A DNA stretch of 64,000 nt. Source: Candidatus Omnitrophota bacterium. GTDB taxonomy: Bacteria; Omnitrophota; Gorgyraeia; JAGLLT01. The notes under the pieces are model-generated. The model did not search any database, was not told the DNA's origin, and saw nothing but the letters and a program-made list of their open reading frames with translations. Positions 12,601-58,719 of the stretch are shown here, one piece after another; position 1 is the first letter of the stretch; every line of letters begins with the position of its first letter. A program made the translations under genes and the position numbers. Location of the stretch: assembly GCA_030632085.1 (NCBI GenBank), contig DAOVJY010000005.1:37476-101475 (forward strand), in the 5' to 3' direction.

Positions 12601-13110
12601 ATCTACCGCCTTCATTGGGCCCATGTCACCGGCACCCGATGATGCCCCTATAACTGCTTTTTTTGGAGGTTCTTTATTTATGGCAACTTCCCAGAGAGAG
12701 TTGCCCCATTCAGTAGCTTTTTCATTAAAAACAATTTTTACATATTTGGCTTTTTGAGGAAGATTAAAGACAATGATTTCCGAAGCTCCGGATCCTTCTG
12801 TCTGATGATGCGCGTCTATCCAATTTTCAGCATTATTAGATAAAAAGATATTGTAATCCTTAGCGTAAGCCGCCTCCCAGTACAATAAAATGTTTTTTAT
12901 TTCTTCTTCCTGCCCTAAATCAATTAGAAGCCATTGAGGATTTGAAAACTCACTGGCCCAGCGCGTTTGTAAATCGTTATCAATCGCTAGCGCGGCTTTG
13001 AAATCTTTTTCGCTGGATGAAGCGCTTATCTGCCACTCAGCGGCACTTGCCGCATGAAAACAAACAACCGCGCAAATAATTGTTAAAACTATCTTCTTAA
13101 TAATTCCCAC
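9664..13110 (-). CDS. Third paralogue: secreted protein with three F5/8-type-C domains and (alpha/alpha)6 glycoside-hydrolase-like domain
   Basis: Three discoidin-like repeats (ALAIDNDLQTRWASEF, MKAVDGDYGTRWSSSF, ELAMDGDKSSYWQS); C-terminal HSWMRDGA and YWDDFWILRGF motifs shared with the other two paralogues. Confidence 0.6.
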   Translation of the reverse strand: MGIIKKIVLTIICAVVCFHAASAAEWQISASSSEKDFKAALAIDNDLQTRWASEFSNPQWLLIDLGQEEEIKNILLYWEAAYAKDYNIFLSNNAENWIDAHHQTEGSGASEIIVFNLPQKAKYVKIVFNEKATEWGNSLWEVAINKEPPKKAVIGASSGAGDMGPMKAVDGDYGTRWSSSFEDDQYWQIDFPKAKELYGLTLHWETAYGEIYEIDVSEDGKEFKTVYSTEDGDGNTDIIYFTPQLVKSLRFNGIQRGTGWGFSFWEIEFHEGSNGPRAEADNTTEASFAELAMDGDKSSYWQSREDKAVITFELPKTVTIGGLQLLWLDNYAKSYSIDISKDGKNWAEAFKTKKGNGNKDWVYFSAKPVKYIRINCLKPNEKSGGFQLAEIELKSKEEQATALKEYQAVAKDAKPGYYPMWLRRIQEFWTITGVVDGDEESLITETGTIEPYKSGFSVMPFIYTDNKLYTAEDCKCSQGLIDKILPLPWVSWQNNDWNLNIQLISFGEPKEAYTAVRYRLTNKKKNDLRAKLALAARPIQVNPIWQRGGFSPIKEAICIKRDKKSLIKVNGEAKCFLVTQPQKMGAVNFDNDDIISYLEKGKVPSSLTASDGEGRVSFGAVYDINLKPGSYKDVIVVFPLSSNNQLLEKIAANPDRFFKKEMEKERRYWSNLLSKFTIDIPEERLINVMKTNIAYVLLNKDGPWIKPGARNYNHSWMRDGAMTSVALLRMAYIDEVKSWLDAITPHVANNGYVPFIFFEGGHPVGFNPDKTGEGQEYDAQGEFVFAVRQYVDFSHDYDYLKQAYPKVIKALEFSRELRRERMTAEYINDPAKKAYYGIIPLSNSHEGYFPAKHSYWDDFWILRGFKDGLYLAELMNDQRNAKWLEEEVEDFRKDIYASIKQVIKDNDIKYIPGCVEFGDFDATSTAIAVMACGEENYLPQPYLDNTFNQYFNDFTKRLKPGGEVTFTPYEVRSADAFIRMGDRGKALIMLRYFTEDSVRPYAWNHMAEVVHAKNRAPSYIGDMPHTWVGTGYISAVRTIFAYELEGKLILAAGVDLAWFSEGVFVKDLPTLYGNISYSITEKDNIISIELNGAAKPPKGFIIPLPDELKDKIITLNGKPAALIDGDLMFKVLPSKIKIENKTYIKNIQ

Positions 13111-13203: not shown

Positions 13204-14163
13204 TTATCTCACAAAGATGTCATACCCTCTTTGAGGAGGCTGCTTTTCTTCTTTTGAGATTTTTGGCTTGGCTGTTTTCGTTGTCGCGGAAACTGATTTT
13301 GCTTTCGGGTAGGCTTTTTTTACTTCTGTTTTTTTGATTTTGGTTTTCTTTGTTTCATTTACATTGTTGATAAGCAGATAAGACCCTTCAAATGTATAGC
13401 CTCGTTCAATTGATTCCTCTTTTTTAGTTTGTTTTTTAGGTTCATTTGTTTCTTCGCGTTGCCGCCAACTTTTTTTAACAATTTTATCTTGTGCTGATTT
13501 CTCTACATTTTTTTGGGAAGTATACTTCGGTTTATCTTGTGTTTCCTTTACGTCATTAACAACTAAAGAGGAACCTTCAAATACATATCCTTTTTGAATT
13601 TCGGTTGTTTCCGGTTTGGGCATTCTTGCGCGTTTAATCTTTTTAACCCTGGGTATCTTTTTTGCTTTAGGTTGTTTTTGTGTTTTGATTTGTTGCGCCG
13701 CTTTTTTTGTTTCTTTCGTTTCTTTCTTCGGAGCCGCCATCAAATCATAACCTCTTTTAATCTCGGAGCCGCTATCGGTTTTTTCTATTCTCCGGGTTTT
13801 CATTTGCTCTCCGGCTTTGCTGTCACTTTGGCGGATGTACTTTTTCATATTGGGATGGCTGGTTAAATCAAGGGCTTCTTGCCATTGCTCTCTGGCCTCT
13901 TTGAGTTTTCCCTGCTTGTACAACGCGTTGCCTTTCTCAAAATATAACCTGGCTACAGTTTCTCTTTTTTCGTTTTCTTTTGTTATCTTCTGATTTTCTA
14001 TTTCAAGATCAACCCTGTCAATGTTCCCTTGGGCCTGTTTGATAAGTTCTTTTAAGCTTAATGTATAACCGTCGTTACCATTATCATCGCCGCCCGCGAT
14101 AGCTAATCCCGCTAAAGACATGGTGAATATACTTATTAAAATTAAAGCTAATATCTTTTTCAT
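13204..14163 (-). CDS. Secreted Lys-rich protein with TPR-like segment and internal RGY-x-FEGS repeats
   Basis: Signal peptide; repeated RGYDL / KGYVFEGSSLVVNDVKET / RGYTFEGSYLLINNVNET / RGYDIF units. No family assignment. Confidence 0.4.
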   Translation of the reverse strand: MKKILALILISIFTMSLAGLAIAGGDDNGNDGYTLSLKELIKQAQGNIDRVDLEIENQKITKENEKRETVARLYFEKGNALYKQGKLKEAREQWQEALDLTSHPNMKKYIRQSDSKAGEQMKTRRIEKTDSGSEIKRGYDLMAAPKKETKETKKAAQQIKTQKQPKAKKIPRVKKIKRARMPKPETTEIQKGYVFEGSSLVVNDVKETQDKPKYTSQKNVEKSAQDKIVKKSWRQREETNEPKKQTKKEESIERGYTFEGSYLLINNVNETKKTKIKKTEVKKAYPKAKSVSATTKTAKPKISKEEKQPPQRGYDIFVR

Positions 14164-17100
14164 TTCTCCCCGCTCCTTTGTATTTCATTTATTATATTCT
14201 GCCAGAGCTTTCGAGCATCTTCTAATCTTCCTTCCCGGCAATATTTATGGGCTAGCTCGTCTTGTTCTTTTAACTCCCGCTCAAAACAGACTTTCTCTTT
14301 AACATAGTCCTTTTCCTGAATATATAAAGCTCTGGCTTGATTATACACCTGAGCGTAAAGCAGCCTGGCCTCTTTTAGGTAGCCGTCTTTTTGTAATTGT
14401 TTGGCTTTTTTAAGTTGGCTATTAAGTTCTTTAATTAGAATATCGTTTTTCTCGGCGCGCTCAAAAGCCCACTTATCTATATCTTTCCTGAGTTGTTTCT
14501 CTTTGGACTTATCTTTCTCTCTCTCTGACCTGTCGTAGAACTTACCTGTCACCCTGATAAAAGGCCCATGAGATGTGTAATCAAGGTGGGTTAAGTCGTC
14601 ATTAAAGTCGGTAAAGTTATAACCCAGGCCTAATTCGGCGTAGGGGCCGATTTGACGACTGATCTCCAAGAGAGCGCCTTGTTTGTAATCTTTGGCTTGC
14701 TTTTGTTTTAAGAACCTGTATTCGGCTCCTATTTTCCAGTTGTTATCTACAAAATAGTTTAGCCTGTTGACACTTAAAAAGGTCTGGCTTTCGGTAAAAT
14801 CAAAACCTGTCACTCTTTCATCAGTCATTTTAAGGGCTACTTTTTCTACCAGCTGCCATTTTCTCGATAAGTCATAGGCGCCCTCAGCAGCTATAACATG
14901 GGCTTTTTCTTCTTCTATGTTTTCATAGTCATCCTGTGATGAAGGTGAATCATTCCTTAAATATGTATATTTACTAAAGAAGTTCAACTTATCACAGGTA
15001 ACCGGCCTGTAAGCGGCCGCTAAAGAAAATTCCTGATAGAGGCCTTGTCTGGTATCTGCCGTGGTGTTATCGCTTTGAGACAGATTCGCCTTGGCGAAAA
15101 GAGTCGTGTTTTCGTTGGGTTTTAACTCTAGGGCATTATAAGAGAGATACTGCCTGGCATTCTCCCGGGACTTATCAACTCTCAATTCCAGTTTACTGGA
15201 GGCTTTAAACCAGTCATTATCAACATAACTTCCGCCTAAACTTATAGCGTTTCTTTTTGTTTGGGTGCCGTCTAAGTTTTGAACCTCGCCGCGCTCAAAT
15301 TGAACAAAACCGGCGGCCTTATCATTAATATCACCTGATAAGCCGAGGATATTAGTATTGGTCTTTTCGCCTTCTAATAAAGATTTTTCTTCTTCCATTT
15401 TGAATTCCATGCCGTTTTCAAATTTTCTTTTCGTTCCGGTAACCTGAGAATATTTTTTACCTTCTAACTCATCGTGGGAGACGGTATAGGTGTGATATAT
15501 CTCATCGCCCTCATCGCCTTTGGCCCGGGTAGTTAAAGAAAAACTATTATCGGTAGATGAGCTGCCGAAACGGCCTATGGCATAGTCACCTAAAACCTCT
15601 AATTTATCAGTTATGTTATAACTGGCGCCCAAGTTGGTAGCCGCGCCCTTGGTGCCCAGGGCCTGTTTAGCCCTTAAGGTCAGGTTTTCATTTATTTTAG
15701 TTTGGATACCGGCCGTTGTCTGGTTGTTAGTCTCGCCCTTCAGGGTGGTTTGCTGCCCCAGAGATAAAATAACATCTTCGGTTAATTTATAATCGGCCTT
15801 TAAAGCCAGAAGGTCTATGTCCGCGTTAGATTCAGACTCATAGGCGGCAATAACGCCTTCGGCTTTCTGGTGGCGGTATTCGCCGGTAAATTTTAATTTT
15901 TCTAGTTTATGAGTAATCTGAGCTGATGTAGTCTGGGTTTTATTGGCGCCTACCTGCAGGGAGCTTTGAGCGTTGCCGCCATCTATGAGCTCCTGGGTAT
16001 CATGGCGTAAAGCAATGTGGGTATTATCCGTCAGGTTATAAGTTAATTTACCACCGGTAAGCTCTTTACCTTGTTCCTGCGCGGTGCTTATGGAAGAAAA
16101 GTTATCTTCAACTTTCTTATAATAAGCCTCAAGGCCCAGATCTTTGATTATATAGGAACTTAAACTGAGGCCATAGGCTCTTCCTCTGGCGGCTTCATCG
16201 CTTAGAAGCTCGCTAAAAGAAAGGCCGCCATCGGTAGAGATATAGCTGGATAGTTCTTTCGAGCGGCTTTCGGCGTATTCGGCGGTAATGGTGGTTTTAT
16301 CGCCCAGCCTCAAAGAAGCGTCTGTGCCGGCTAACTGATAGTTGTTGTCCACCTGTTCTTCTTTAACATAGGTACCGCCCACCGAGAGATAGTCGCCCAG
16401 CGCCTGTTCAACGCGGCCGCCATAAATACCTCTGTCATATTTGTCTTTTGTTTCATATTCATAGTCTACAGTTACATAGACGGGATTACCGTTAAGTAAA
16501 TAGTTTGAGATAATAGTATCTGACTCGGTTATATGCGATATTGGCTGCCAGAAGATAATCCGGCCGTTATCATAATCTATCTCATAGTCAAAACCTTCGT
16601 CCTGCTCCATAGCGGCCAGAACAAGGCCGCTTATCTTGTCTCTGACTTCAATGGTTATCTTTTCAGACCCCTCTATAACTCTCTTATGTTTAAGGTAGAA
16701 TAAGGAGCCGCCGGTCCCTAAAAACTCAACGTGGGCCGCTTGCTGCTGAGCCCTGGCCTTAAAGGCGATTAAATGGGTTAACGGTTGTCCGAACTTAGTT
16801 TTAGAAACTGACTCATAGTCTAACTTGGCGCCATAGAGGCTGCGTTTAAAGCTCGCTATATCGGTATCGGTAAAGTCGATTACATAATTGCCCCAGGTAA
16901 ATGAAGACTTATCCCATTCAACTAATAAGTAGAGAGCTCCCTGGGTTTGGGTGGCTTGATAATCAATAGTTGAGGTATCTCCATAAATTGGGTAATATTT
17001 ATCCGGATCTAAATTGCGGAAGAGTTCTTTTTGTTTGCGGTCTGTGTCCAGACTTGAAGTGATTAAAAACTTGCCCAGGATTTTGCCTTTTAGATAGTAG

Positions 17101-20100
17101 GCCAGTTTGCCTTCAGACCAGAAGCCTTCCTGATACTTATCGTCATGCCGGATGGGCTCTATGCTACCGGAATGGAAGGTGTAGCCCGCCTTGGCGTCTC
17201 CCATAGCTATAAAGAAAAGATAGCTGTCGTTGACTGAGAGTTTTTTAGTGGTAGTTACCTGTTTGCCGGCGGCATCGGTTCCGCTCACGAAAACTTTATG
17301 CTCTCCTTCCGGAATTATTAATTCATATTCGCTGTTTTGGTTTTGAGTTATAGAATCGGCATCAATTTTTTTTCCATCAACATAAATAACATCTACCGGG
17401 TTTTTGTCGCCTGAATAATTAATAACTTTTGTTTCAAAAATCTCTGTATTTTTAATTAAAAGAGTGTCGCCTTCAACTTTAATGGTTTGTTTCTTGAGAG
17501 AGTTTCCGGCGGCTTCTTTTTTAAGCCACTTGTTTTTCAGCTTTTCTTCTTTTGTTTTTGATAGCTGAGAGCTGACAGCTGATGACTGATAGCTGACGAC
17601 TGAAAGCTTCTTTTCTTTTGTTGTATCCTGCCTGCCATTTTTACCAGTTACGATCAAAACATATACATAATTCCTGTTAGATGTTAAATGCTGAACGCTG
17701 GATGCTTTTGCGTCGGACGTCCGGCGTCGGACGTCTAACTCTCCATTCCAATAAACGGGTTTATTTATATTAAAGCTGTCGCCTCTAAATATCTTCACTA
17801 TTTCTCTGGTGTCTTTGTCTAAAATCTCTATCCGCCATCTTTTAATAAATAGCGAATAATTCGTAAATATTCTAAATTCATAATCAGCTTTCAGCTTTCC
17901 TTCTTTTGTTTTTTTGCTTTTCCTATCCGCTATCCGCTCTACGCTATCCGCTATTTGCCTTGTGTCTTGTGTCTTGTGACTTATAACTTGTGATGGGTAT
18001 AAACTCACATTAAGCCTTGGTTTGGCCGTTTCCTTTTTCTGTATTATTTTTACTTGTGACTGGTGTCTTGTGTCTTGCCTGTGCCCGTCAGGGTATGACT
18101 TATTTTCAGTGTTCACCCCAAAATTTACCTTGGCCAGTAAACCGTTGGTTATATCTACAACAACAACTTTATCCGTAGTTAAGTAAGCGCCTTCGGGCAG
18201 GGTGCTTTCATCTAATCTAAGGAGATGCCTTCCGGGCCTTACGGCCGGAATATGATATCTGCCGTTTTTATCGGTGGTGACTACGGTGCCGTCCTCCATA
18301 ACAATCCGGACATAGGCAATACCTGATTCCGAATTGATAGATGCTGGATGTCCGATGTCCGACGATAAAGCCCCCTGCTTTCTGTTTTTGTCGGACGCTA
18401 TTTTTTTAGTGAGTTGATTAGATTGTTGGTTTTGGCGGCTATTTCGTTGCACAGATTCAGTAAATCCTTCGCCTTTCCATCCTGAAGATACTGAAGTCGA
18501 ACTGCTATTTTGAGCAAGGTCATTACTTCGTACAGGGAACCCCTTGCTTGATAAAGGAACTGAATAAATACTTTGTTGTGATAACAACCCTTCCCTTCCG
18601 CTATGTTCAACGGTACTGAAACTACCGCTCTCTGTAGTTGAGATATCATGCCGAATTATTCCTTGTTTGGAAAATTCTTCGTTATTTTGTAAATTTTCTC
18701 TGTTAGTTCCATCCCTTTCTGCCATACTTCCAACTTCTCGAATTGATACTCCATTTTTCGCTCCTTTTTGACATCCGACATTCGACGTCGGGCATCTAAC
18801 ATTATCTTGATAGCCGTTTTCATTCTTATCCCAAAAGACCTTACCGATAAGATTACCTAAATCAAAGAGAGGGTCGAGGGTTATCTTGACTGTGGCCGAG
18901 TCTTTATTGGAGATAACCGTCTCGTCGGAGTATCTGGCCCAGGCCCTGTTTTCATAGTTGCCCTGGGTAACGCCGGAACCTATTATCAGCTGGTACTTTA
19001 GGGTTCTGGTTGTTTGAGCATTAACTGTGCCTATGTCGAATAATAAGGCGGTTGAGCCTTTAGGGTTAACGGGTATATTATCCAGGATGGCTTTGCCGCT
19101 TACATACTTAAAGCCTCCCGGAATCCTGTCTTCTAAGAAGACGTTTTTAACATCTGTTGAGCCGATGTTCTTGATGGTGACGGTATAGGTGACGATATCG
19201 CCTATGACGGCCTCTTTTTTATTAGCTTCCTTCTTAATTTTCAGCAAGAGGTTGTTAGAGTCCATGGGGTGATCCATCTCTATGATAACCCCGGCGACGG
19301 TAAAGACCTCTCCTTTAGAGCCGGTGACTATCACCCTTCCCGTAGAAAAGGTTGTCTTTTTAGAAGGATATGTATACCCCGGGGCTTCCACGGTGATATA
19401 GAAGTTGGCGTTGGCGCATAAGAAGCTGTAGGCGCCATCGGTGCCTGTCGTCTGGGGGTTAAGGTCACTGCCGGCTATGTCTGTCCCCGGCACGCAGAGC
19501 GTACCGTTCTGATTATAGATAGTTACAATAGCGTTAGCTATGGGTTCGTTGGTGGTTGAATCAAAGACGATACCGAAGGGATCGGTGAAACTATAACTAA
19601 CAACGTCGCTGGCGGTACCGGCAACGGTAACGGTTAGATAGTTAGTGCCCTTTACAAGCGAGGAGGTATAGCTGGAACTAACTATGCTCCAGGTACCATC
19701 CGCGGCGGTAACAGTAGCTGCCACATCCGTTAAAAGCAGGTTGCCGTCGGCGTCCCAGGCTGAGACTGTCACATTTTGCCCCGCTAATCCGGAACCTGAT
19801 AAAGCGGGCTTTGCGCTGCTGATCTTATCTCCGTCAACAGGTGAAGTAATCGTCGGAACTTGATTGGTGGTGGTGGGAACTACTACTGTAACGTTAACAG
19901 GAGCGCCTAAAGTAGCCCCGACATCCGCCCTGATATTATTAGCTCCCGCGGCCAGAGTAGCGCTATAGTCGGCCTGCCGTACTATATAATTACCGTTGGC
20001 ATCGGCGGTTACCTGAGCAACGGTCTGATAAGCGGCGGCTCCAACCGTGCCTTTTATAGTTACCGTATCACCCGCTCCGGAAGAACCTCTTATGGTTGGC

Positions 20101-21605
20101 TGTTGGCCAACGGTCTTGGCCGCTTGAGGTGTTGATATCGAAAGGTTTTTAAAAACCCAGTTAGCGTTATTATTACCTGAATCGGTTGACGCATAACAGG
20201 TTGTTGTATTGGTGTTGGCATCCGCGTCTTTTACATCAACGAAGCTAACCGTCTGGCTGCCGTTAGGCAAAGTGATGTCCCACTTATTACCGGCTGAGGT
20301 TGAACGCAGGGTAACTAAACTTCCGCTTGTTCCGGTTAAGGTTAGGATGTTATCTACCGTTTGGGTGGTACCGACGGTAAAGTTAATCTGTTTGTTGGAC
20401 GTGGTACAGCTTAAGTTATAAAATGTAGAGCTTCCCGAAACAACTGAAGTCTGAGCGCTATCATCAAAGACAACCGTACCGCTTGAGTGAACGAACGCGC
20501 CGCCCGAACGAGCAAAGTTACCGGCAACATTAAAGTCGCCGCTTGGAGCGGTTAATGTGCCGCCGGAAATAACAACATTACTGTCGGCATTTATCGTGCC
20601 GTTTAGCGCATTCAATGTTCCACCGCTTACGGTAAGATCGCCGCTGGTTTTCAAATTTGAAGATGTTGTAAATGTTCCCGCCGAAACTGATAAAGCGCCA
20701 TGGTCAGTCGTTCCTGTCTCGAATTGATTTGAGATATTCCAGCCGCCTCCGGTCAGGCCGCTTAAATCTAAGGTGCAGACATCGCATTTAAAGGTTCCGG
20801 ATGAAGTAAATGAACCTGTATAACCACCGGTTACAGTAAAATCCCCCTGGTCTAAATCAAAGGCGTCAAGAATGCAAACGTTGTTCGTGGCGTTAAAGAT
20901 AACATCGTCGTCTGCGGCCGGGGCTCCATCTCCTACCCAGTTTGCCGCTGTAGTAAAATTGCTATTACCTCCGCCACCATCCCAGACATAAGCATCTGCA
21001 GTAAGTGAAGCATCATCAAACTTACCGGTTTCACTGACCGCAACGCTTCCAAATATAACCCTGACCTTAGCTGTATTTGCGGGGGCGGTTCTGGTTAAGG
21101 TTTTCTGAACCCATGAGGTAGTTACAGTAATGGTGATTTCATCGTTGGATATCTCAACGTCGCCGCTGTCAAACCAGATAAGCTTCATATAGAAACTGCC
21201 GGCGAGAACGCCGGCATCTCTTAATGTCCAAAGCGTATAAGTATATTCAACCCCTTCTGCCGCATTAACCTCCTGATAGGCTTCACCTGTTCCGCCAGCT
21301 ACGAAATCAGCCATAGCCATGCCATAGGTGCCGCTATGATTAGCCCAGTTTTCTCTTTGAGCACAGCCCGATCTTGTCCAGTTATCAGCGTCGGGGCCAA
21401 GTGGTGCAGGATTCTCAAAACCAGGATTTAACAGCAGGTTTCCTGTTGCCGCATAAATATTACCGGGCGCGAACAACAAAAACGCCCCCGCCAAAAATAA
21501 AAAGATGGGAACAATCCCCATCTCTCTTTTAATAGAAAACGCACTCCTAAAATAAGTTACTACCCTTAACAAGCGCCCGACAATCATTCTGCTTCCTTCC
21601 CCCAA
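14160..21605 (-). CDS. Giant (2481 aa) secreted multidomain surface protein: CBM-like N-terminus, Gly/Thr-rich beta-helix-like repeats, Ig-like and SdrD-B/CnaB-like domains, C-terminal beta-rich region and coiled-coil tail
   Basis: Continuous ORF; likely true start at the internal MGIVPIFLFLAGAFLLFA signal peptide; DUF11-like segment (VTYTVTIKNIGSTDVKNV); CnaB-like TDKNGRYHIPAVRPGRHLL. Contains in-frame repeat-derived low-complexity segments (see findings). Confidence 0.6.
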   Translation of the reverse strand: MGEGSRMIVGRLLRVVTYFRSAFSIKREMGIVPIFLFLAGAFLLFAPGNIYAATGNLLLNPGFENPAPLGPDADNWTRSGCAQRENWANHSGTYGMAMADFVAGGTGEAYQEVNAAEGVEYTYTLWTLRDAGVLAGSFYMKLIWFDSGDVEISNDEITITVTTSWVQKTLTRTAPANTAKVRVIFGSVAVSETGKFDDASLTADAYVWDGGGGNSNFTTAANWVGDGAPAADDDVIFNATNNVCILDAFDLDQGDFTVTGGYTGSFTSSGTFKCDVCTLDLSGLTGGGWNISNQFETGTTDHGALSVSAGTFTTSSNLKTSGDLTVSGGTLNALNGTINADSNVVISGGTLTAPSGDFNVAGNFARSGGAFVHSSGTVVFDDSAQTSVVSGSSTFYNLSCTTSNKQINFTVGTTQTVDNILTLTGTSGSLVTLRSTSAGNKWDITLPNGSQTVSFVDVKDADANTNTTTCYASTDSGNNNANWVFKNLSISTPQAAKTVGQQPTIRGSSGAGDTVTIKGTVGAAAYQTVAQVTADANGNYIVRQADYSATLAAGANNIRADVGATLGAPVNVTVVVPTTTNQVPTITSPVDGDKISSAKPALSGSGLAGQNVTVSAWDADGNLLLTDVAATVTAADGTWSIVSSSYTSSLVKGTNYLTVTVAGTASDVVSYSFTDPFGIVFDSTTNEPIANAIVTIYNQNGTLCVPGTDIAGSDLNPQTTGTDGAYSFLCANANFYITVEAPGYTYPSKKTTFSTGRVIVTGSKGEVFTVAGVIIEMDHPMDSNNLLLKIKKEANKKEAVIGDIVTYTVTIKNIGSTDVKNVFLEDRIPGGFKYVSGKAILDNIPVNPKGSTALLFDIGTVNAQTTRTLKYQLIIGSGVTQGNYENRAWARYSDETVISNKDSATVKITLDPLFDLGNLIGKVFWDKNENGYQDNVRCPTSNVGCQKGAKNGVSIREVGSMAERDGTNRENLQNNEEFSKQGIIRHDISTTESGSFSTVEHSGREGLLSQQSIYSVPLSSKGFPVRSNDLAQNSSSTSVSSGWKGEGFTESVQRNSRQNQQSNQLTKKIASDKNRKQGALSSDIGHPASINSESGIAYVRIVMEDGTVVTTDKNGRYHIPAVRPGRHLLRLDESTLPEGAYLTTDKVVVVDITNGLLAKVNFGVNTENKSYPDGHRQDTRHQSQVKIIQKKETAKPRLNVSLYPSQVISHKTQDTRQIADSVERIADRKSKKTKEGKLKADYEFRIFTNYSLFIKRWRIEILDKDTREIVKIFRGDSFNINKPVYWNGELDVRRRTSDAKASSVQHLTSNRNYVYVLIVTGKNGRQDTTKEKKLSVVSYQSSAVSSQLSKTKEEKLKNKWLKKEAAGNSLKKQTIKVEGDTLLIKNTEIFETKVINYSGDKNPVDVIYVDGKKIDADSITQNQNSEYELIIPEGEHKVFVSGTDAAGKQVTTTKKLSVNDSYLFFIAMGDAKAGYTFHSGSIEPIRHDDKYQEGFWSEGKLAYYLKGKILGKFLITSSLDTDRKQKELFRNLDPDKYYPIYGDTSTIDYQATQTQGALYLLVEWDKSSFTWGNYVIDFTDTDIASFKRSLYGAKLDYESVSKTKFGQPLTHLIAFKARAQQQAAHVEFLGTGGSLFYLKHKRVIEGSEKITIEVRDKISGLVLAAMEQDEGFDYEIDYDNGRIIFWQPISHITESDTIISNYLLNGNPVYVTVDYEYETKDKYDRGIYGGRVEQALGDYLSVGGTYVKEEQVDNNYQLAGTDASLRLGDKTTITAEYAESRSKELSSYISTDGGLSFSELLSDEAARGRAYGLSLSSYIIKDLGLEAYYKKVEDNFSSISTAQEQGKELTGGKLTYNLTDNTHIALRHDTQELIDGGNAQSSLQVGANKTQTTSAQITHKLEKLKFTGEYRHQKAEGVIAAYESESNADIDLLALKADYKLTEDVILSLGQQTTLKGETNNQTTAGIQTKINENLTLRAKQALGTKGAATNLGASYNITDKLEVLGDYAIGRFGSSSTDNSFSLTTRAKGDEGDEIYHTYTVSHDELEGKKYSQVTGTKRKFENGMEFKMEEEKSLLEGEKTNTNILGLSGDINDKAAGFVQFERGEVQNLDGTQTKRNAISLGGSYVDNDWFKASSKLELRVDKSRENARQYLSYNALELKPNENTTLFAKANLSQSDNTTADTRQGLYQEFSLAAAYRPVTCDKLNFFSKYTYLRNDSPSSQDDYENIEEEKAHVIAAEGAYDLSRKWQLVEKVALKMTDERVTGFDFTESQTFLSVNRLNYFVDNNWKIGAEYRFLKQKQAKDYKQGALLEISRQIGPYAELGLGYNFTDFNDDLTHLDYTSHGPFIRVTGKFYDRSEREKDKSKEKQLRKDIDKWAFERAEKNDILIKELNSQLKKAKQLQKDGYLKEARLLYAQVYNQARALYIQEKDYVKEKVCFERELKEQDELAHKYCREGRLEDARKLWQNIINEIQRSGEK
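17560..18000. repeat. Composite short-repeat block inside the giant ORF
   Basis: Degenerate tandem 7-mers (CAGCTGA, TCTTGTG, CGCTATC), palindrome CGTCGGACGTCCGGCGTCGGACG (17711-17734), and reverse complement of the TAGAGCG-GTAGCGGATAGG core seen at 36991, 54697, 56738 and 58590. Confidence 0.45.
18347..18797. mobile_element. Inverted-repeat-flanked ~450-bp insertion carrying the four-helix-bundle gene (MITE/IVS-like)
   Basis: Ends GGATGTCCGATGTCCGACG (18347-18365) and GACATCCGACATTCGACGTCGGG (18771-18793) are near reverse complements; the insert interrupts an SdrD-B-like domain yet keeps the host frame open. Confidence 0.4.
18398..18754 (-). pseudogene. Four-helix-bundle protein gene (TIGR02436 / 23S-rRNA-IVS-protein / Avd-like) with in-frame TAA at codon 33, embedded in the giant ORF in another frame
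   Basis: ATG at 18752-18754 with AAAGGAG RBS; translation MEYQFEKLEVWQKGMELTEKIYKITKNFPNKE*FGMISQLQRAVVSVPLNIAEG... carries the family's NIAEG motif; frame offset +1 from host ORF. Confidence 0.6.
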
Positions 21606-22066: not shown

Positions 22067-22921
22067 CTATTTGGTAAGGATTTTGATAAGACGATCAAGG
22101 TCTCTGTTGCTGTAATAATCAATTACTATTTTACCTCTTTTTCGTCCTTTGATGATTGAAACTTTGGTGCCAAGATTATTTCGGAGACTCTCTTCCGCGG
22201 CCTTTAGGTAGGAATCAACTTCTTTGACTTTTTTTGGCTTTGTTCCGCTTGCGGTATGTTTTTTAACTAATAACTCCGTTTCTCTTACGGATAAGCCTTT
22301 TTTTGCAATATTTTCAACAAGTATTATTTGTTTGTTCGCGCTCTCGATGGAAAGTAAGGCTCTTGCGTGCCCCATTGAAACTGTTCCACGTGAAACATAA
22401 TCCTGCACTACAAGCGGTAACTTAAGCAAGCGTAATGAATTAGCAATCGTTGATCTGTTCTTGCCTACAGCATCAGAAACGTTTTCTTGAGATAAGTTAA
22501 ACTCATTTATAAGGCGTTCGTAAGCGTGGGCTTCTTCTATAGCGTTGAGCTCCTGCCTTTGTATATTCTCAACCAAAGACAACTCTAATGCTTCTTTATC
22601 CTTAACGTGCCTAATAATAACAGGTGCCTTTGCTTGCCCCAGCTCTTTAAGTGCCCGATACCTTCTTTCACCTGCTATTAATTCATATTTTTGCTCTCCC
22701 GCGCCACTTCTTAAAGGGCGAACAATTAAAGGCTGTACTATTCCCTTCTCTTTTATCGATGAAACAAGCTCTTCATGCTTGGAGGCATCAAAATTCATTC
22801 TTGGCTGAAATCTGCCCGGCTCAAGCAATTTAATGTCAACTTCTTTTATTGTCTGTTGAGAGCCTTCTGCTTTTTTGGGTATTAAGGCCTCAATTCCCCT
22901 TCCAAGCGCTTTCTTCTTCAT
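22067..22921 (-). CDS. parB: Chromosome partitioning protein ParB
   Basis: ParB/Spo0J box GERRYRA, HTH region, adjacent to parA and parS. Confidence 0.9.
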   Translation of the reverse strand: MKKKALGRGIEALIPKKAEGSQQTIKEVDIKLLEPGRFQPRMNFDASKHEELVSSIKEKGIVQPLIVRPLRSGAGEQKYELIAGERRYRALKELGQAKAPVIIRHVKDKEALELSLVENIQRQELNAIEEAHAYERLINEFNLSQENVSDAVGKNRSTIANSLRLLKLPLVVQDYVSRGTVSMGHARALLSIESANKQIILVENIAKKGLSVRETELLVKKHTASGTKPKKVKEVDSYLKAAEESLRNNLGTKVSIIKGRKRGKIVIDYYSNRDLDRLIKILTK

Positions 22922-23178
22922 GTTAGGTCTCCGTAGTTATTAACAAATTATTCAACTAAACAATATTTGTAGTTGCTCTCATAAATAAAAAAAGGCTTAA
23001 CACAAATATAACAGCCAGTGCAATTGCTAAACAAGCAAGGCCATTGCCCTTTCTATTATTCAAAGACGTGTCGCGAAACGCTAAAACCGCAAACAAAAAG
23101 GCGAGCACGGCCTTCTCTGTACCCAGAAACTGCACATAACAACTTAAGCCTAAAAGTAGGGCAGCTATAGCAAAAGCA

Positions 23179-24021
23179 CTAGTCTCTTGTGTCTGGCGAG
23201 TCAAGAACTTCCTCCTGAGCTAATTGTTCATAATCACTTTCAATTGAAGCAGTTACGTCCATATTTCTTTGTAGAAACTCTTCTGTTAGCTCTTTATACT
23301 TCTCCGCCCCCACCGAACCCTTATCATACAAAAGGACCGGCTTTCCAAATCCGGGCGCCTCGCTTAACCTGATGTTTCTTGGAATTACGCTTTTAAAAGT
23401 TTTTTCCGGAAAATGTTTTTTGATTTCATCAATTACTTCATGTGTAAGCTTAGTTCTAAAGTCAGCCATAGTTAAAACAACCCCGACAATTTCTATTGCC
23501 GGATTTAAATTATTCTTTACTAAATCTAAAGTATTCAACAACTTACTCAAGCCTTCAAGTGCGTAATATTCACACTGCAACGGCACCAAGACCATGTCAC
23601 ATGCGGTTAGAGCATTTATAGTTAAAAGTCCCAACGAAGGAGGCGTGTCAATAATCGTATAATCATACCTCCGCTTTGCCTCTTCGAGAACTTTTTTAAG
23701 CTTGTATTCTCTTGCAATTGTTCCCACGAGTTCCACTTCGAGACCGGTTAAATCAATATTTGAAGGAATGATAAATAAATTAGGTAGGTGTATGTTCTTA
23801 ACGATGTTGTTTAATTTTGCCTTTTCGAGCATTAAATCATACAAGCTCTCTTTTACGGTTTCCTTGTTAACACCTATTCCGCTAGTCGCGTTTCCTTGCG
23901 GATCCGCATCAACAATAAGTGTTTTTTTGCCCGCAAAAGCCAAAAAAGCGGCAAGGTTGATGGCGGTTGTGGTTTTCCCAACTCCACCTTTTTGATTACA
24001 TATGGTTACTATTTTACCCAT
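23179..24021 (-). CDS. parA: Chromosome partitioning ATPase ParA/Soj
   Basis: Deviant Walker A KGGVGKTT; conserved ParA architecture. Confidence 0.9.
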   Translation of the reverse strand: MGKIVTICNQKGGVGKTTTAINLAAFLAFAGKKTLIVDADPQGNATSGIGVNKETVKESLYDLMLEKAKLNNIVKNIHLPNLFIIPSNIDLTGLEVELVGTIAREYKLKKVLEEAKRRYDYTIIDTPPSLGLLTINALTACDMVLVPLQCEYYALEGLSKLLNTLDLVKNNLNPAIEIVGVVLTMADFRTKLTHEVIDEIKKHFPEKTFKSVIPRNIRLSEAPGFGKPVLLYDKGSVGAEKYKELTEEFLQRNMDVTASIESDYEQLAQEEVLDSPDTRD

Positions 24022-24245
24022 TAAGTTTGTTTTGTTTCACGTGAAACATTTTTTTGAGGCTCCTTAAGAGAAACCTTAACTTTGGCTTGTTTTGACCCCT
24101 TCATACCAAAAAGGCCCTTGTTGCCTTCCACCAAAACTTTTACTTCTACGCAATCACGCTCAACTCCAAGCTTGAGGAGTGCTTTTTTTATCGCATCTTT
24201 AACTGTGACGCCTTCAATATCAATAGACCTCATCTTTCTATTCAT
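24021..24245 (-). CDS. Small Jag/KhpB-like RNA-binding protein
   Basis: Position directly downstream of yidC as in the canonical yidC-jag arrangement; short KH-like fold sequence. Weak sequence evidence. Confidence 0.4.
   Translation of the reverse strand: MNRKMRSIDIEGVTVKDAIKKALLKLGVERDCVEVKVLVEGNKGLFGMKGSKQAKVKVSLKEPQKNVSRETKQT
24033..24048. promoter_or_regulatory. parS centromere-like site
   Basis: Exact 16-bp palindrome TGTTTCACGTGAAACA matching the canonical parS consensus, immediately upstream of parA. Confidence 0.8.
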
Positions 24246-25897
24246 TATACATCCACCAATATTGTTTTTTCAAGCTTTTTTTGTATTATGAAGTGAGCCA
24301 GAGCCATTAAAGCGGTATTGACCGTCCAATACAACACCAACCCCGACGGCAGGCTATAAAAAATAAATCCAAAAACTATCGGCATCATAATCATCATTTT
24401 TTGTTGTTGCTGTTCCTGGGGGCTCTTTTCACCACTACCGCTCCTGGCACTCATGGATATTTTCTGCTGAACCACCATCGCAATCATCATTAATACAGGA
24501 AGCAGATTAAAGTTGTCGCCCAAAATAGGCAGCGTTCTGCCAAACGAAAATAATGCGTCCGGCAATGACAAGTCCTTTATCCATAGAAAGTTAGAACCTT
24601 TTAACATGGGAGATCTGGCCAGCGTCACATATAGAGAAATAAATATGGGCATCTGTAAAAGCATGGGTAGGCAGCCGCCCATAGGGTTTACATTGTGCTC
24701 TTTGTAAAGCTTCATCATCTCTGCCTGTAATTTTTTCTGGTCAGCTTTGTGTGTTTCTCTTAATTTTGTTAGGTGAGGCTGAACGGCCTGCATGTGCCTC
24801 ATTGACTTAACGTTTTTATATGTAAGGGGATACGTAAATATGTTTATTAAAATTACAAGGAATATGATTGCAACTCCGTAACTACCTGTTAAATTATAAA
24901 AAAAAGTTAATACTTTTATCAACAACTTACAAACAACATTTAACTTCCCATAATTTACAGCTTCGCCCATGCCGAGTGGCACCAGGTTTTTCTCCATCGT
25001 GGGGCCGGCATATAACATATACTGATGAACCGCCTCTGATCCACCCGGAACAATTACCGATTCAACGCCAGCACCTAAAGACCAGTCGTCTTGGTCCTTT
25101 GAGGCACCTTTGGACCACGATAAATATGTATAACTTATGTCCTGGCGTGGTGTTATGATGGCTGAAGAGTGTGTGTTTCTTAAAACGGCCCACTTGGGAT
25201 TTTTAGCAAAATTATATACTTCCCCGCTTTTGGCGGCTTTTATCGCGTCTTTTGTTTTAACCCACAATAAATTTTTTCCATCATAGCTTCCCGCGTTTAA
25301 AAAACGCTTGTCCAAAACTGATGAAAACTGCAGATTAGTTGCTGCTGCCAGATCATACGAAATAACTTTGTCGCTCTTTGATTTATTGGAGAAAGTGATA
25401 TATAACTGTATATCATAGTTAGAGTTAGAAAAAATAAATCTTTTTTTAATTTCTAAATCTTTGTTGGCTTTGCTTATTAATGTAACTTCGTTTTCTGTAA
25501 TTTCAACAATCTTAAATTCGACAAGCTCTTCGCTTGAGCCCTTTAAAATCAGCTCCAGGGTTTTTAGAGCGTTTGGGCCCGCTAGCAGCAGGGGTTTTTC
25601 TGAAAACCCAGCATCACCATTTCCTTTAATCCAGAGCTTATTTATCCCCGCGCTGGCGGTGGATAATTCCGCCTTAAGAAAAGCCGTTTTAATTTCAACT
25701 ATCTTTTCATCGCTCTTCTTTCTTTTTGCTGTTTTTTCTACTACCGGTGACTTAAGGGGCTCTACGGCCGTTTCTTCGGCCACCCTTTCGTTTGTGCTTT
25801 TTTTAGCCGGTTTATTTGTAGGCGTTAATAATGAATAAGCTCCCAAGATGGCCATGATTAATACAATGGCTGCTATAAATCTTTTTTGATCATTCAT
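24245..25897 (-). CDS. yidC: Membrane protein insertase YidC
   Basis: N-terminal TM, periplasmic domain, conserved C-terminal TM core (GGCLPMLLQMPIFISLY). Confidence 0.9.
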   Translation of the reverse strand: MNDQKRFIAAIVLIMAILGAYSLLTPTNKPAKKSTNERVAEETAVEPLKSPVVEKTAKRKKSDEKIVEIKTAFLKAELSTASAGINKLWIKGNGDAGFSEKPLLLAGPNALKTLELILKGSSEELVEFKIVEITENEVTLISKANKDLEIKKRFIFSNSNYDIQLYITFSNKSKSDKVISYDLAAATNLQFSSVLDKRFLNAGSYDGKNLLWVKTKDAIKAAKSGEVYNFAKNPKWAVLRNTHSSAIITPRQDISYTYLSWSKGASKDQDDWSLGAGVESVIVPGGSEAVHQYMLYAGPTMEKNLVPLGMGEAVNYGKLNVVCKLLIKVLTFFYNLTGSYGVAIIFLVILINIFTYPLTYKNVKSMRHMQAVQPHLTKLRETHKADQKKLQAEMMKLYKEHNVNPMGGCLPMLLQMPIFISLYVTLARSPMLKGSNFLWIKDLSLPDALFSFGRTLPILGDNFNLLPVLMMIAMVVQQKISMSARSGSGEKSPQEQQQQKMMIMMPIVFGFIFYSLPSGLVLYWTVNTALMALAHFIIQKKLEKTILVDV

Positions 25898-25915
25898 TCC
25901 TTAGTCTCTTTTCTT

Positions 25916-26161
25916 TTATTTTAGAGGATCGTATCCGCCCGCCGAAAAAGGATTGCATCTTACTATCCTTTTTACTGCCAACAACAAACCTTTGCTCAAT
26001 CCATATTTAGAAATAGCTTCGGTGGCATATTGACTGCAGCTGGGATAATATTTGCAGCACGGTGCTTTAAACGCTGTTAAATAGCGTCGATAAAACATTA
26101 TTATCAGCAAAAGTATTTTTTGAAATAGGCTACTAAATTTATTCATATTGCAGACAAACAA
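25916..26161 (-). CDS. yidD: Membrane protein insertion efficiency factor YidD
   Basis: YYPSCSQYA...RCNPFSAGGYDP motif characteristic of YidD. Confidence 0.85.
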   Translation of the reverse strand: MFVCNMNKFSSLFQKILLLIIMFYRRYLTAFKAPCCKYYPSCSQYATEAISKYGLSKGLLLAVKRIVRCNPFSAGGYDPLK

Positions 26162-26200
26162 CGAGCGCCTTTATAACGCCCGCCACTTTTATTTTTCATT

Positions 26201-26338
26201 TTATGCCGCTAGTTTTTTTCGGCCTTTTTGTCTTTTGGCCTTAATTATTTTTCGGCCGTCTCCGGTCTTCATTCTCTTTCTGAAACCGTGTTTTCTTTTT
26301 CTTTTCTTGTTTGATATTGGCTTTAAATTCTTTTTCAT
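26201..26338 (-). CDS. rpmH: 50S ribosomal protein L34
   Basis: Not in ORF track (45 aa). Minus-strand translation [45 protein letters not shown] matches the L34 pattern (KRKRxHGFRxRM...GRK). Confidence 0.85.
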
Positions 26339-26546
26339 AGTGCAACGATTATAACATAGTATTGTTTTAAGTCAAGTTTTTTTGCCTTATGTTTTAATGG
26401 GGATGCGGGGAGGTATAGTAAGTGTTTTTTTTATTTGAAAATTTTTCTTGAATAAAGTATTTGTTTTGTTATAATGCAACAAGATGGCAGGCATTAGCGC
26501 GTGTGGCCTGTTAATAACTTGTGGAAAACTTTAAAAAATTTTTAAT
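26339..26546. promoter_or_regulatory. oriC-associated region upstream of dnaA with dnaA promoter and DnaA-box-like sites
   Basis: Sigma70-like promoter TTGAAT(26448-26453)-16 nt-TATAAT(26470-26475); box-like TTTTCCACA (rc of 26520-26528) and TTATTAACA (rc within CTGTTAATAACTTGT). Gene strand switches from minus to plus here. Confidence 0.5.
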
Positions 26547-29191: not shown

Positions 29192-31990
<2,799 letters not shown>

Positions 31991-36961: not shown

Positions 36962-36990
36962 CTTTAATACACCATGTGTTTATTGGCGCA

Positions 36991-37014
36991 TAGCGTAGAG
37001 CGCGTAGCGGATAG
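36991..37014. repeat. Copy of dispersed TAGCGTAGAGCGCGTAGCGGATAG repeat core
   Basis: Shares core with elements at about 17922-17955 (rc), 54697-54724, 56738-56763 and 58590-58629. Confidence 0.5.
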
Positions 37015-37109
37015 AAAAAGCTCTAAAGGGGCCCAAGCGTGCCGATGAAGTATTGGGCAAGGGTTTGTGATGATGTGGCTAATCGGGATTTATATTAAAA
37101 AAGCCAGCA

Positions 37110-42582: not shown

Positions 42583-42583
42583 C

Positions 42584-54668: not shown

Positions 54669-54696
54669 CCGCGTCCGCCATTATAGCAAAGAGCCC

Positions 54697-54724
54697 GTAG
54701 TGTAGAGCGTAGGGCAAAGATAGA
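54697..54724. repeat. Copy of dispersed TAGAGCG-core repeat
   Basis: GTAGTGTAGAGCGTAGGGCAAAGATAG followed by CCAAAAAAAGGATTTTAAGGGAAAAGAT; about 70-75% identical to 56738-56830. Confidence 0.45.
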
Positions 54725-54855
54725 TTGCGCAGGGACGAGAACCCAAAAAAAGGATTTTAAGGGAAAAGATTGCTCCCTCTCCTCAGGGGTTTAGGCTTCT
54801 ACTTTAAGGTAATTAAATAGCGCGTTCCTCGATTTTTTGCAAAAATAGGAGGTGC

Positions 54856-56695: not shown

Positions 56696-56737
56696 CCGTA
56701 CCACGTAGGGTACGGTGCGCGCATTGTAACAAAGAAC

Positions 56738-56763
56738 GTACAGTATAGAGCGTAAGATAAAAG
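56738..56763. repeat. Copy of dispersed TAGAGCG-core repeat downstream of tRNA-Ser(CGA)
   Basis: GTACAGTATAGAGCGTAAGATAAAAG ... CCAAAAAAAGGGCTTTAGGGGAAAAGAT, homologous to 54697-54790. Confidence 0.45.
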
Positions 56764-57286
56764 TAGAATGTTTTGGGATGAGAATCCAAAAAAAGGGCTT
56801 TAGGGGAAAAGATAATTTTCCCTTATTGGCGAAGTTTACTTTTTCAGCGGGAGGAAAGAAAGTATTAAAAGGAGGCAATTAAAATGAAAAGATATGGTTG
56901 GATGATTGGATGAACTGTAATTTTCAGTGCAGGCATGATGATGGCAATAGAATATGTTCCTGAGAATGTTTGGCAACAGGTTGTACAAACGTTGAATTTT
57001 ACAAATACATTGTTGCTTGTTTCAGTAGTGTTGCAAGCTGGGATTTTAGCGAACTTAAAAAACTAAAACTATATATCTGTAGGAGAAAAAAACTTTTTAG
57101 GGCTTGGAGAAAACATGAATGTTTATTTTGAAACTGATGAGGGAAAAATTTTAATAAGAGATTACATGCAGGCATTTCCTATAATCCAAGTAAAGGGCGT
57201 AACGTTTATTATATCGATAGTTGCATCAATTTTTGTTTCAATAGGTATTGTTTTATTTTTTCACGTTTTGTAGATAAATAGTTTTT

Positions 57287-58479: not shown

Positions 58480-58589
58480 TATTTTTGTAAATTGTAATCA
58501 CAAGCGCGGCTGCGTAATCTGTTCGAGGCGAAGCCTCGAACAAAATACATAAAAAAATAAAAAGCTTACAGCTATCAGCTTTCAGCAAA

Positions 58590-58629
58590 GATAGCGTTTA
58601 GCATAGAGCGCGTAGCGGATAGGAAAAGC
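58590..58629. repeat. Copy of dispersed repeat core with flanking CAGCTATCAGCTTTCAG
   Basis: GATAGCGTTTAGCATAGAGCGCGTAGCGGATAGGAAAAGCAAAAAAACAAG matches the reverse complement of 17900-17955 inside the giant gene. Confidence 0.5.
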
Positions 58630-58719
58630 AAAAAAACAAGAAATAAGAAACAAGTCACAAATCGGAAAACAAAAGAACATATCCGAAACGCGGCGGTTCA
58701 GATACAGGCCAAAGAAGAA

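Follow-up and report, generated by a model that had tools for sequence, protein, structure and literature searches.

Rickettsia palindromic elements (RPE), reportedly described by Ogata et al. in 2000, are said to be short selfish repeats that lie in frame in protein-coding genes. They are palindromes of 100-150 bp that contain no tandem heptamers, have no associated gene and are confined to Rickettsia. The Coxiella intervening sequence (IVS) carries an open reading frame (ORF) for an S23p protein, a 28-bp terminal stem that is cut by RNase III, and tandem GACAGAT heptamers, variable in number, upstream of the ORF; stem excision by RNase III is known for the IVS of Coxiella, Leptospira and Salmonella (PMC4990558). 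Convergent pairs were noted in work on the heptamer repeats of Xanthomonas and Nostoc, which did not mention S23 (PMC4692102). Here, we analyze a stretch of 64,000 nucleotides from a Candidatus Omnitrophota bacterium (contig DAOVJY010000005.1; the whole stretch is called the window), in which arrays of tandem heptamers are dispersed inside a giant gene and in intergenic DNA near tRNA genes. We consider it probable that these repeats are the terminal heptamer arrays (“arms”), the ORF-less miniatures and the solo ends of a small promoter-less cassette that carries a gene for a four-helix-bundle (4HB) protein. The observations establish the anatomy of the cassette, the homology of arms and leaders, the orientation bias, selection on the 4HB frame, the clearing of stop codons from the host frame, and insertion at variable linkers.

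A 4HB gene nested in a giant reading frame

The window contains a cassette of this kind within the coding sequence of a giant gene. The host gene and the parts of the cassette are:

14160..21605, minus strand: host gene for a 2481-aa surface protein (domain search and orthologue alignment; Omnitrophota metagenome-assembled genome, MAG)
18335..18369, minus strand: nested cassette, 3' arm with the sense sequence CGTCGGA CATCGGA CATCCAG CATC (inverted-repeat comparison)
18401..18754, minus strand: 4HB ORF of 118 codons, PF05635 23S_rRNA_IVP / TIGR02436 (profile search)
18755..18801, minus strand: ribosome-binding site (RBS; AAAAAGGAGCGAAAA ATG) plus 5' arm (GATGCCC GACGTCG AATGTCG GATGTCA)

The host protein has a signal peptide, DUF11 and CarboxypepD_reg/SdrD-like domains, and a C-terminal half that is barrel-like. 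Record P0001 is 100% identical to it, and the records of orthologues carry the Omnitrophica label. Judging from the alignments, the ORF is one gene, because nine orthologues align on both sides of the array region. The 4HB ORF (18754..18401) matches PF05635 over profile positions 1-105 of 106, with E=1.7e-37 and 128 bits (cut-off 33.8), and the four-helix-bundle protein model TIGR02436 with E=8e-35. Profiles of the Avd protein match it weakly (bAvd PF22296, E=6.6e-6; NF033474, E=5e-6), both below their curated cut-offs. The arms, at 18335-18369 and 18767-18801, are 71% complementary over 35 nt and are paired in the minimum-energy fold, as they are in loci L059 and L200 from other genomes. Accordingly, two features of an IVS are found here, the PF05635/TIGR02436 ORF and the terminal inverted repeats that close a stem; a location in rRNA (a 23S or 16S helix) was not found, the copies lying in a protein-coding ORF and in intergenic spacers.

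An important feature of the nested cassette is that its DNA is read in two frames. The 4HB ORF lies at offset +1 to the host frame, which crosses it without a stop. The P0003 gene (L200) contains an intact 4HB ORF with 79% aa identity to that of the window, and a second copy that is truncated on its 3' side. Comparison of the window copy with the first P0003 copy gave a dN/dS of 0.09 in the 4HB frame and of 2.15 in the host frame; therefore, selection has acted on the small 4HB gene. No nested copy has a stop in the host frame, whereas none of 74 free-standing 4HB genes is stop-free in that frame, the mean number of stops being 9. An exhaustive phmmer search with the host-frame peptide returned six more proteins. 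In four of these six, whose DNA was examined, a 4HB ORF lies intact on the same strand at offset +1 and is accompanied by an RBS and by inverted heptamer arms. The seven nested copies, in five unrelated host genes, are all at offset +1.

Some features of these hosts and copies should be mentioned. In a 1439-aa protein (P0122, locus L215, nt ~2400-3000; also P0123), the dual-coding cassette lies in a mini-intein (Hint domain), in the position usual for the homing endonuclease. Another host, as read by eye, appears to be a fragment of a BREX PglX-like methyltransferase. The second copy of P0003 (L200, 6640-7060) is cut off at codon 98, and the solo copies in the window likewise keep just the 5' arm; this recurrent loss of the 3' side may be a hint on how copies are made or decay.

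The same giant ORF contains, outside the cassette, the following arrays and arms:

17535..17559, minus strand: A-rich leader-like 25-mer, sense AAAAACAAAAGAAGAAAAGCTGAAA, 96% identical to 17889-17913
17559..17608, minus strand: AGCTNTC heptamer array of ~7 units, in frame, peptide ..SYQSSAVSSQLS..
17686..17736, minus strand: arm of the GTCG/GACGTC-type cassette, solo or miniature, with homology to 18332-18397, the 3'-arm region of the cassette
17884..17913, minus strand: AGCTGAA x2.3 plus A-rich leader-like 25-mer (repeat comparison)
17903..17954, minus strand: 5' arm of the TAGCG type, 4 cores and GATAG, plus leader GGAAAAGCAAAAAAAC; same orientation as the host gene
17959..17991, minus strand: CACAAGN heptamer array x5, in frame, peptide SHKTQDTRQ
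18053..18078, minus strand: CAAGACA heptamer array x3.6, in frame, peptide QDTRHQSQ; its CAAGAC core also flanks a 4HB gene in locus L147

Every heptamer array within the ORF lies in the host frame, and the alignment of orthologues identifies the arrays as lineage-specific insertions at variable linkers. The TAGCG module is an insertion of 26 aa, compared to P0008 and P0009, at a hypervariable linker where other orthologues have different heptamer-encoded peptides. The segment SHKTQDTRQIADSVERIADRKSKKTK, which the CACAAGN and TAGCG arrays encode together with the A-rich tail, is a linker insertion compared to the same two proteins. The arm at 17903-17954 is read as IADSVERIADRKSKK in its sole stop-free frame; i.e., the single frame of the TAGCG strand that lacks TAG is the one used by the ORF (IADSVERIADR). 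The linker with the AGCTNTC array at 17559-17608 bears other heptamer arrays in the orthologues, the CGTCGGA palindrome also falls in a variable linker, and the arm at 17686-17736 gives the extra residues ELDVRRR in the alignment. This arm contains the near-palindrome (CGTCGGA)x3.6 at 17711-17736 and resembles the 3'-arm region of the cassette in the window. The host-frame peptides IADSVERIADR and GVSIREVGSMAER would be diagnostic of read-through of the inserted segments. A further insertion, of ~160 aa, lies in an SdrD-like domain at ~18320-18800, and P0003 has it twice; this is the nested cassette. Thus, the in-ORF copies have the properties by which RPE are recognized: they lie in an ORF, keep its frame and occupy sites that vary among orthologues.

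We also considered a function of the TAG-containing arrays as stops in all three frames and rejected it, since one frame stays open in the in-ORF copy owing to its common GAGCG unit. A typical five-unit TAGCG arm closes all three frames (hand count).

TAGCG arms and heptamer arrays around 4HB genes

Two further members of the TAGCG family lie in intergenic DNA of the window:

36984..37021, plus strand: TAGCG 5' arm and the first part of the cassette leader (..GGATAGAAAAAGCTCTAAAG; in the cassette, GGATAGTGAAAACAAAAAGCTTTAAAG)
58562..58661, plus strand: composite of AGCTNTC x3.6 (58562-58587), TAGCG arm and leader (58591-58639) and (A)ACAAG x4 (58636-58661)

The core TAGAGCG(N)GTAGCGGATAGG was found at 17922-17941 (minus strand, one mismatch), at 36996-37015 (one mismatch) and at 58604-58623 (exact), compared to 0 matches in 100 shuffles. 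The reverse complement of 17906-17954 is 90% identical to 58591-58639 over 49 nt, which include the non-periodic A-rich tail GGAAAAGCAAAAAAAC; 36986-37021 matches both copies over 36 nt, at 89%, and retains AAAAAGCTCTAAAG where the cassette has AAAAAGCTTTAAAG. The copy at 36984-37021 sits between ORF 36296-36961 and tRNA-Ser(tga), co-oriented with both, and the composite at 58562-58661 is co-oriented with its flanking genes. An arm and leader near-identical to 58591-58639 occur in Omnitrophica GWA2_41_15 (L005, L038), and an arm-leader-AAGAAA unit similar to the composite occurs in L064. The window contains tandem heptamers of the types AGCTNTC, NNTAGCG (TAGCGNN), CACAAGN, CGTCGGA and GATGTCC. 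A lag of 7 is the sole enriched period in its repeats, and shuffled sequence yields 0.2-1 heptamer arrays per core. CACAAGN-type arrays are found at 17959-17991, 18053-18078 and 58636-58661, and AGCTNTC arrays at 17559-17608 and 58562-58587. As in the short tandemly repeated repetitive (STRR) sequences, these are tandem heptanucleotides that are dispersed and mainly intergenic; they are imperfect, with 70-94% matches and at most 2-3 identical units.

The initial annotation had proposed a composite repeat family with this core at five sites. Three of them (17900-17955, 36991 and 58590) carry the core, and the other two (54697 and 56738) belong to a different repeat, discussed below. Much else of that proposal was confirmed: the similarity of the copies reaches well beyond short low-complexity words, the flanking submotifs are real (AGCTNTC and CACAAGN heptamer arrays), the palindrome it had placed at 17711-17734 is present, and a dispersed, multi-module family does occur both in tRNA-proximal intergenic DNA (36984-37021, 58562-58661) and in the giant ORF (17903-17954). 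The copies inside the ORF indeed keep its frame, as do open-frame sites of other genomes, and copy positions, when compared among relatives, vary by lineage at the linkers of the orthologues. In RNA folding, which had been suggested as a check of each copy, the TAGCG copies of the window have z-scores of +0.24, +0.57 and -2.5; they are not palindromic and lack the second arm, so that they are half-elements and form no hairpins. Small, ORF-less elements with terminal inverted repeats are therefore not represented by these three copies, which are single arms. A search of the whole window against Rfam at the gathering threshold returned tRNAs as the sole matches and no rRNA, and we found nothing specific on heptamer repeats of Omnitrophota or Planctomycetes in the literature searched.

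An exact scan of 185,579 species genomes (596 Gb) for TAGAGCGNNTAGCGGATAG yielded at least 119 loci. The motif has 17 fixed bases, for which ~70 chance matches are expected in 596 Gb; hence, single matches in odd taxa (Silvibacterium, Pseudidiomarina, Thermomicrobiales and similar) were ignored. Among the matches listed, to which the counts in this paragraph refer, 47 loci are labelled Omnitrophota and 32 Planctomycetota, and the genomes with multiple hits also include Atribacterota, Aerophobetes, Syntrophorhabdaceae, Melainabacteria and Endomicrobiales. The labels overstate the spread across phyla, because many Planctomycetia-labelled MAGs have flanks in common with Omnitrophota loci (L042/L090, L081/L107). 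An inverted CGCTA (CGCTANN) arm lies within 120 nt of 63/122 TAGCG sites, and arm length peaks sharply at 4 cores (78/122 5' arms and 43/73 3' arms). The resulting hairpins consist of 5-bp helices with small internal loops between them, with z of -4.3 to -10.6 for full elements; in Rfam (E<=0.1), three hairpin loci gave sub-threshold chance matches to miRNA hairpins alone. Frames are open for at least 240 nt on both sides of 24/106 TAGCG sites, one of which, in a ValRS-like context, bears the same ADSVERIADR peptide.

A tblastn search against the TAGCG loci found five more 4HB genes. In L036, L059, L064 and L085, TAGCG and CGCTA arrays bracket the 4HB gene; the 5' arm runs into GTGAAAACAAAAAGC, where the start codon is GTG, and the CGCTA 3' arm contains the stop codon. 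The window copies and the short-loop hairpins have, in their GGAAAAGCAAAAAAAC tail, a sequence similar to this GTGAAAACAAAAAGC leader. Because TAGCG arms and leader bracket 4HB genes, the short-loop hairpins and the arm-plus-tail copies of the window look like ORF-less miniatures and solo 5' ends, respectively. Copies without an ORF exceed those with one by ~15:1 (among the matches listed), and the ORF-bearing relatives encode the 4HB protein alone.

In L064 (1050-1240), three tandem copies of TAGCG arm and leader, the first two of them followed by AAGAAAAGATAAGAAAGAC, precede one 4HB gene; therefore, arm plus leader can itself be reiterated. The 4HB proteins of L059 and L064 are ~97% identical, and the MAGs are labelled Aerophobetes and Clostridia, which points to recent horizontal transfer or mis-binning. 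In L117, a TAGCG arm is followed by (CTAAACC)n, a plant-telomere-like heptamer, up to the end of an Omnitrophota contig. A telomere reading of this (CCCTAAA)n end was rejected; the assembly probably broke at what is just a further heptamer array.

The association of heptamer arrays with 4HB genes is not limited to the TAGCG type. A metagenome scan with the 4HB alignment gave 80 loci, including 63 genes with both flanks. Inverted repeats between the two flanks were found in 37/63 of these genes, compared to 0/36 displaced controls, and periodic arrays, almost only of period 7 or 8, were detected in 21 upstream and 28 downstream flanks, compared to 1 and 0 in controls. Array units differ from cassette to cassette. 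The neighbours are co-directional with the 4HB gene in 41/41 cases downstream and in 37/43 upstream, which suggests a promoter-less cassette that rides on host transcription. Plasmid 4HB genes are concentrated in heterocystous cyanobacteria, and all 10 of the 10 inspected are flanked by arrays (Nostoc, Calothrix, Geminocystis, Stanieria, Picosynechococcus, Gemmatirosa, Azospirillum and Riemerella); for example, the gene of Nostoc sp. C052 lies between (GGGAACA)4 and (CTGTTCC)7.

On a plasmid of Picosynechococcus sp. PCC 7003 (L211; NZ_CP016476, 126543-126899), a type III-B CRISPR operon contains a 4HB cassette with GGAGATA-type arrays, which separates cas10/cmr2 from cmr3 and points in the same direction as these two genes.

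Proposed cassette and alternative explanations

We propose that a cassette consists of 4-5 heptamers, an A-rich leader with RBS, a 4HB ORF of ~118 codons (PF05635, S23p, Avd-like) and the same heptamers inverted, and that such cassettes lie co-oriented inside host transcription units. The window would then hold a GTCG-type cassette with one stop codon in the giant gene (18335-18801), a solo GTCG-type arm that forms the palindrome at 17711-17736, and three solo 5' arms with leader of a second, TAGCG-type cassette (17903-17954, 36984-37021 and 58591-58639); the AGCTNTC and CACAAGN arrays may be further types that accompany these two. Inside an ORF, only variants that keep the host frame open would survive. 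The nested cassette would represent a sub-lineage whose offset +1 frame was purged of stops, so that the host protein reads through, and the 4HB gene would be, or would have been, translated from its own RBS within the host ORF. In the transcript, the arms may pair into a stem cleavable by RNase III, as published work on IVS suggests; the degenerate arms in the ORF (71% complementary) and the single TAGCG arms would avoid cutting of the host mRNA. Candidate routes of movement are recombination between dispersed arrays and an RNA- or reverse transcriptase (RT)-mediated route through the Avd-like protein. The conserved cores, free spacers and fixed number of 4-5 units suggest reiterated protein-binding sites, and the pentameric 4HB protein is a candidate reader of the arrays.

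It should be noted that several observations weigh against this explanation. The 4HB ORF of the window is interrupted by one in-frame TAA (18658-18656, codon 33). The three TAGCG copies have neither a 3' arm nor an ORF, and their derivation from a cassette would rest on the likeness of ~15 nt of A-rich leader and on the identical arm. The AGCTNTC and CACAAGN arrays have just core-sharing cassettes elsewhere (AGCTG in L218, CAAGAC in L147), with no clear homologues. A detectable array was found at 50/99 4HB genes, i.e., about half have none at the threshold used. Complementarity of the spacer triplets of the two arms was 0.488, compared to 0.509 +/- 0.016 in shuffled pairs (five registers, 500 permutations), and a pure RNase III stem model does not predict such uncorrelated variable positions; a perfect stem as a conserved feature was dropped, since compensatory complementarity of the variable triplets was not found. 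Mobility is inferred indirectly, because no target-site duplication and no pair of empty and filled sites in near-identical genomes was seen; in 65 non-redundant full elements, the flanks are A/T-rich and contain no direct repeat. Hairpins occupy the same site in different species (L081/L107, L042/L090, L024/L098), which fits long-term retention as well as mobility.

Alternatively, the repeats could be true miniature inverted-repeat transposable elements (MITE) or repetitive extragenic palindromic (REP) elements moved by a transposase encoded elsewhere (RAYT/IS200-IS605-type or TA-duplicating), with the 4HB gene as a passenger and the heptamers as binding sites. We consider this unlikely. Terminal inverted arrays with a conserved core and free spacers do resemble reiterated protein-binding sites, the element ends (T)TAGCG...CGCTA(A) are compatible with a TA target, the same arm sequence occurs in MAGs labelled as several phyla, and the excess of ORF-less copies given above is typical of what such elements would show. 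However, the lack of target-site duplications counts against this explanation too, no transposase was found among the window proteins scanned or beside any cassette inspected, each arm type comes with its own 4HB gene and not with varied cargo, and strict co-orientation with host transcription is unexpected for cut-and-paste of DNA. The REP/MITE-like identity given in the initial annotation is not supported for these reasons and for the absence of co-variation between arms; its description of a dispersed, frame-tolerant family was right, and the 4HB cassette as the origin of the repeats was missed.

Another explanation is that the repeats are hairpins selected by the host and kept for regulation, as intercistronic mRNA stabilisers, terminators, processing sites or protein-binding arrays. 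Copies stand just past stop codons, in the spacers that separate tRNAs or genes of one direction; their hairpins are very stable, different species share some of the sites (L081/L107, L042/L090), and 90% of Xanthomonas heptamer repeat sites are reported as conserved between species (PMC4692102). We nevertheless regard it as improbable, since the window copies do not fold, some copies lie inside ORFs, sites differ among the orthologous giant genes, no Rfam match was found, and the bracketing of 4HB genes is left unexplained.

Still less probable are ordinary microsatellites, born independently by slippage and alike across sites as a low-complexity coincidence. The units are tandem and vary from copy to copy in number and at the variable positions, the two arms show no correlation at these positions, and slippage of the polymerase is the proposed cause of the over-representation of heptameric simple repeats in bacteria (PMC4692102). 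However, a 49-nt match of 90% with a non-periodic tail is not expected by chance even once, the same arm and tail recur in other genomes, the arms have a tightly fixed length of 4 cores, slippage cannot produce the inverted pairing of arrays (63/122, among the matches listed), and arrays are specifically tied to 4HB genes compared to controls. Finally, phase variation, in which gain or loss of heptamers (7 mod 3 = 1) would shift the frame of the giant adhesin-like gene and toggle its C-terminal anchor half, is hardly credible: several arrays do lie in the central linker of a surface protein, perfect runs exist in orthologues ((GTCACAA)x4 in P0005, (CAGTTCT)x3 in P0004) and heptanucleotide phase variation is known in Haemophilus, but the imperfect window arrays are no long perfect tracts (at most 2-3 identical units), intergenic DNA and, elsewhere, housekeeping genes (ValRS-like and UvrA-like contexts) contain these arrays too, and no length variants were observed.

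Returning to the 4HB cassette, a much broader version of the proposal can be formulated, which we hold only tentatively and think rather doubtful as a whole: the 4HB/S23p cassette would be the source of most bacterial arrays of 7-8 nt, including STRR, with the protein ring reading the arrays and the +1 sub-lineage colonising ORFs. In such a scheme, each subunit of the pentamer ring would bind one array unit, as TRAP and HutP read spaced triplets, leading to processing or copying of the cassette, and the hosts of the dual-coding sub-lineage would include giant adhesins, an intein and a BREX-type methyltransferase. This version, if true, would explain both the STRR repeats, unexplained since 1990, and the heptamer excess of genome surveys. 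A HutP/TRAP-like reading of UAG-N4 repeats was set aside as a lead only, TAG being found in many arm types and absent from many.

The narrower proposal would tie tandem heptamers (STRR-type and heptameric simple repeats), so far without an origin, to a defined gene cassette, and would make the IVS element of 23S rRNA a general cassette that rides on transcription and, across phyla, is found in operons, tRNA clusters, CRISPR-cas loci, inteins and ORFs. The overlap of a 118-codon gene under purifying selection with a host frame cleared of ~9 expected stops, in seven copies and five host genes, is an unusually clean natural case of overlapping-frame selection, in which a putatively mobile gene adds linker peptides to surface proteins. 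For annotation, it means that such inserts swell the models of giant proteins with alternative-frame peptides and mask small genes; the window cassette itself lies 400 nt outside the coordinates initially annotated, in the same ORF.

The tRNA-Ser repeats, neighbouring genes and comparison with known systems

The two sites that proved not to belong to the TAGCG family form a separate pair:

54679..54770, plus strand: non-member, first copy (a) of a 92-nt direct repeat, with a tRNA 3'-end remnant upstream of it
56722..56813, plus strand: non-member, copy b of the 92-nt direct repeat, directly downstream of tRNA-Ser(cga) 56608-56695

No match to the core was found in the 54697 and 56738 regions at up to 3 mismatches, and the 92-nt repeat and the TAGCG family have just ~10 nt in common (TAGAGCGTA). 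The two copies are 75% identical over 92 nt, and the similarity runs upstream into the tRNA 3'-end remnant, which aligns with tRNA-Ser(cga). Because the repeat continues into this remnant, it is best read, from its sequence, as a duplication of the att type that borders a defence island. The island, of ~19 kb (37295-56813), lies between tRNA-Ser(tga) 37295-37382 and tRNA-Ser(cga) and encodes a large serine recombinase (37368-39053), RadC, a type III restriction-modification methylase and Res, Dcm, a MORC-like double-HATPase protein, and a Gabija-like OLD-TOPRIM ATPase with a UvrD helicase (50496-54114). Directly upstream of each tRNA-Ser gene (37160-37294 and 56508-56607) are two tandem units of ~62 nt; in each of them, CAATTTGCTTGTTGAAATTGTACAAATT follows a hairpin, AGATCTC...GAGATC. 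The units belong to a 188-nt repeat of 83%, are not in Rfam, and may be a promoter or processing element.

Elsewhere in the window, 1045-13110 encodes three paralogous proteins of ~1000-1150 aa with F5/8 type C (discoidin) domains and, among them, a LacI-type regulator; the 5' ends of the paralogues are conserved over 248 nt (3874-4121 and 7104-7351, 83%). The region 22067-34460 is a replication-origin neighbourhood (parB, parA, yidC, dnaA, dnaN, gyrB, gyrA), in which GC skew changes sign near 26-28 kb.

In the literature searched, we did not find descriptions of general heptamer-array arms, of abundant ORF-less and solo derivatives outside rRNA, or of the in-ORF dual-coding sub-lineage. The heptamer repeats nearest to these arrays, the cyanobacterial STRR and those of Xanthomonas and Nostoc (PMC4692102), are likewise tandem, mostly intergenic, near gene ends and often in convergent (inverted) pairs, whereas the phylum and the unit sequences differ; a link of such repeats to 4HB genes was not found in the literature searched. 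The small dispersed copies without ORF, with inverted termini and outnumbering an ORF-bearing parent, are reminiscent of MITE and of REP and bacterial interspersed mosaic elements (BIME), but differ from them in the lack of target-site duplication, in tandem-unit arms with non-covarying spacers and in strict co-orientation; no RAYT-like ORF was found among the window proteins scanned. The 4HB protein resembles Avd, the accessory protein of diversity-generating retroelements (DGR), in a weak yet specific profile match, in belonging to the same fold family and in the pentameric partnership of Avd with nucleic acid and RT; unlike Avd, the 4HB ORF of the window has no reverse transcriptase, template repeat or variable repeat nearby.

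With RPE, the cassettes share in-frame insertion that adds peptide segments at permissive sites. They differ from RPE, which we compare by description, in having tandem heptamers and, in some copies, a complete overlapping gene. The closest resemblance is to the IVS of 23S rRNA (Leptospira, Coxiella burnetii, Brucella and the S23p of Xanthomonas): the protein is of the same PF05635/S23p family, a four-helix bundle forming a pentameric toroid, terminal inverted repeats close a stem around the ORF, and the orientation is sense in the host transcript. The likeness to the Coxiella IVS extends to tandem heptamers of variable number. In contrast to these IVS, the cassettes described here lie in intergenic and tRNA spacers and in protein-coding genes and not in rRNA, have explicit heptamer arms of 4-5 units with a conserved core, are accompanied by abundant ORF-less miniatures and solo arms, and include a dual-coding sub-lineage that is read through by host ORFs.

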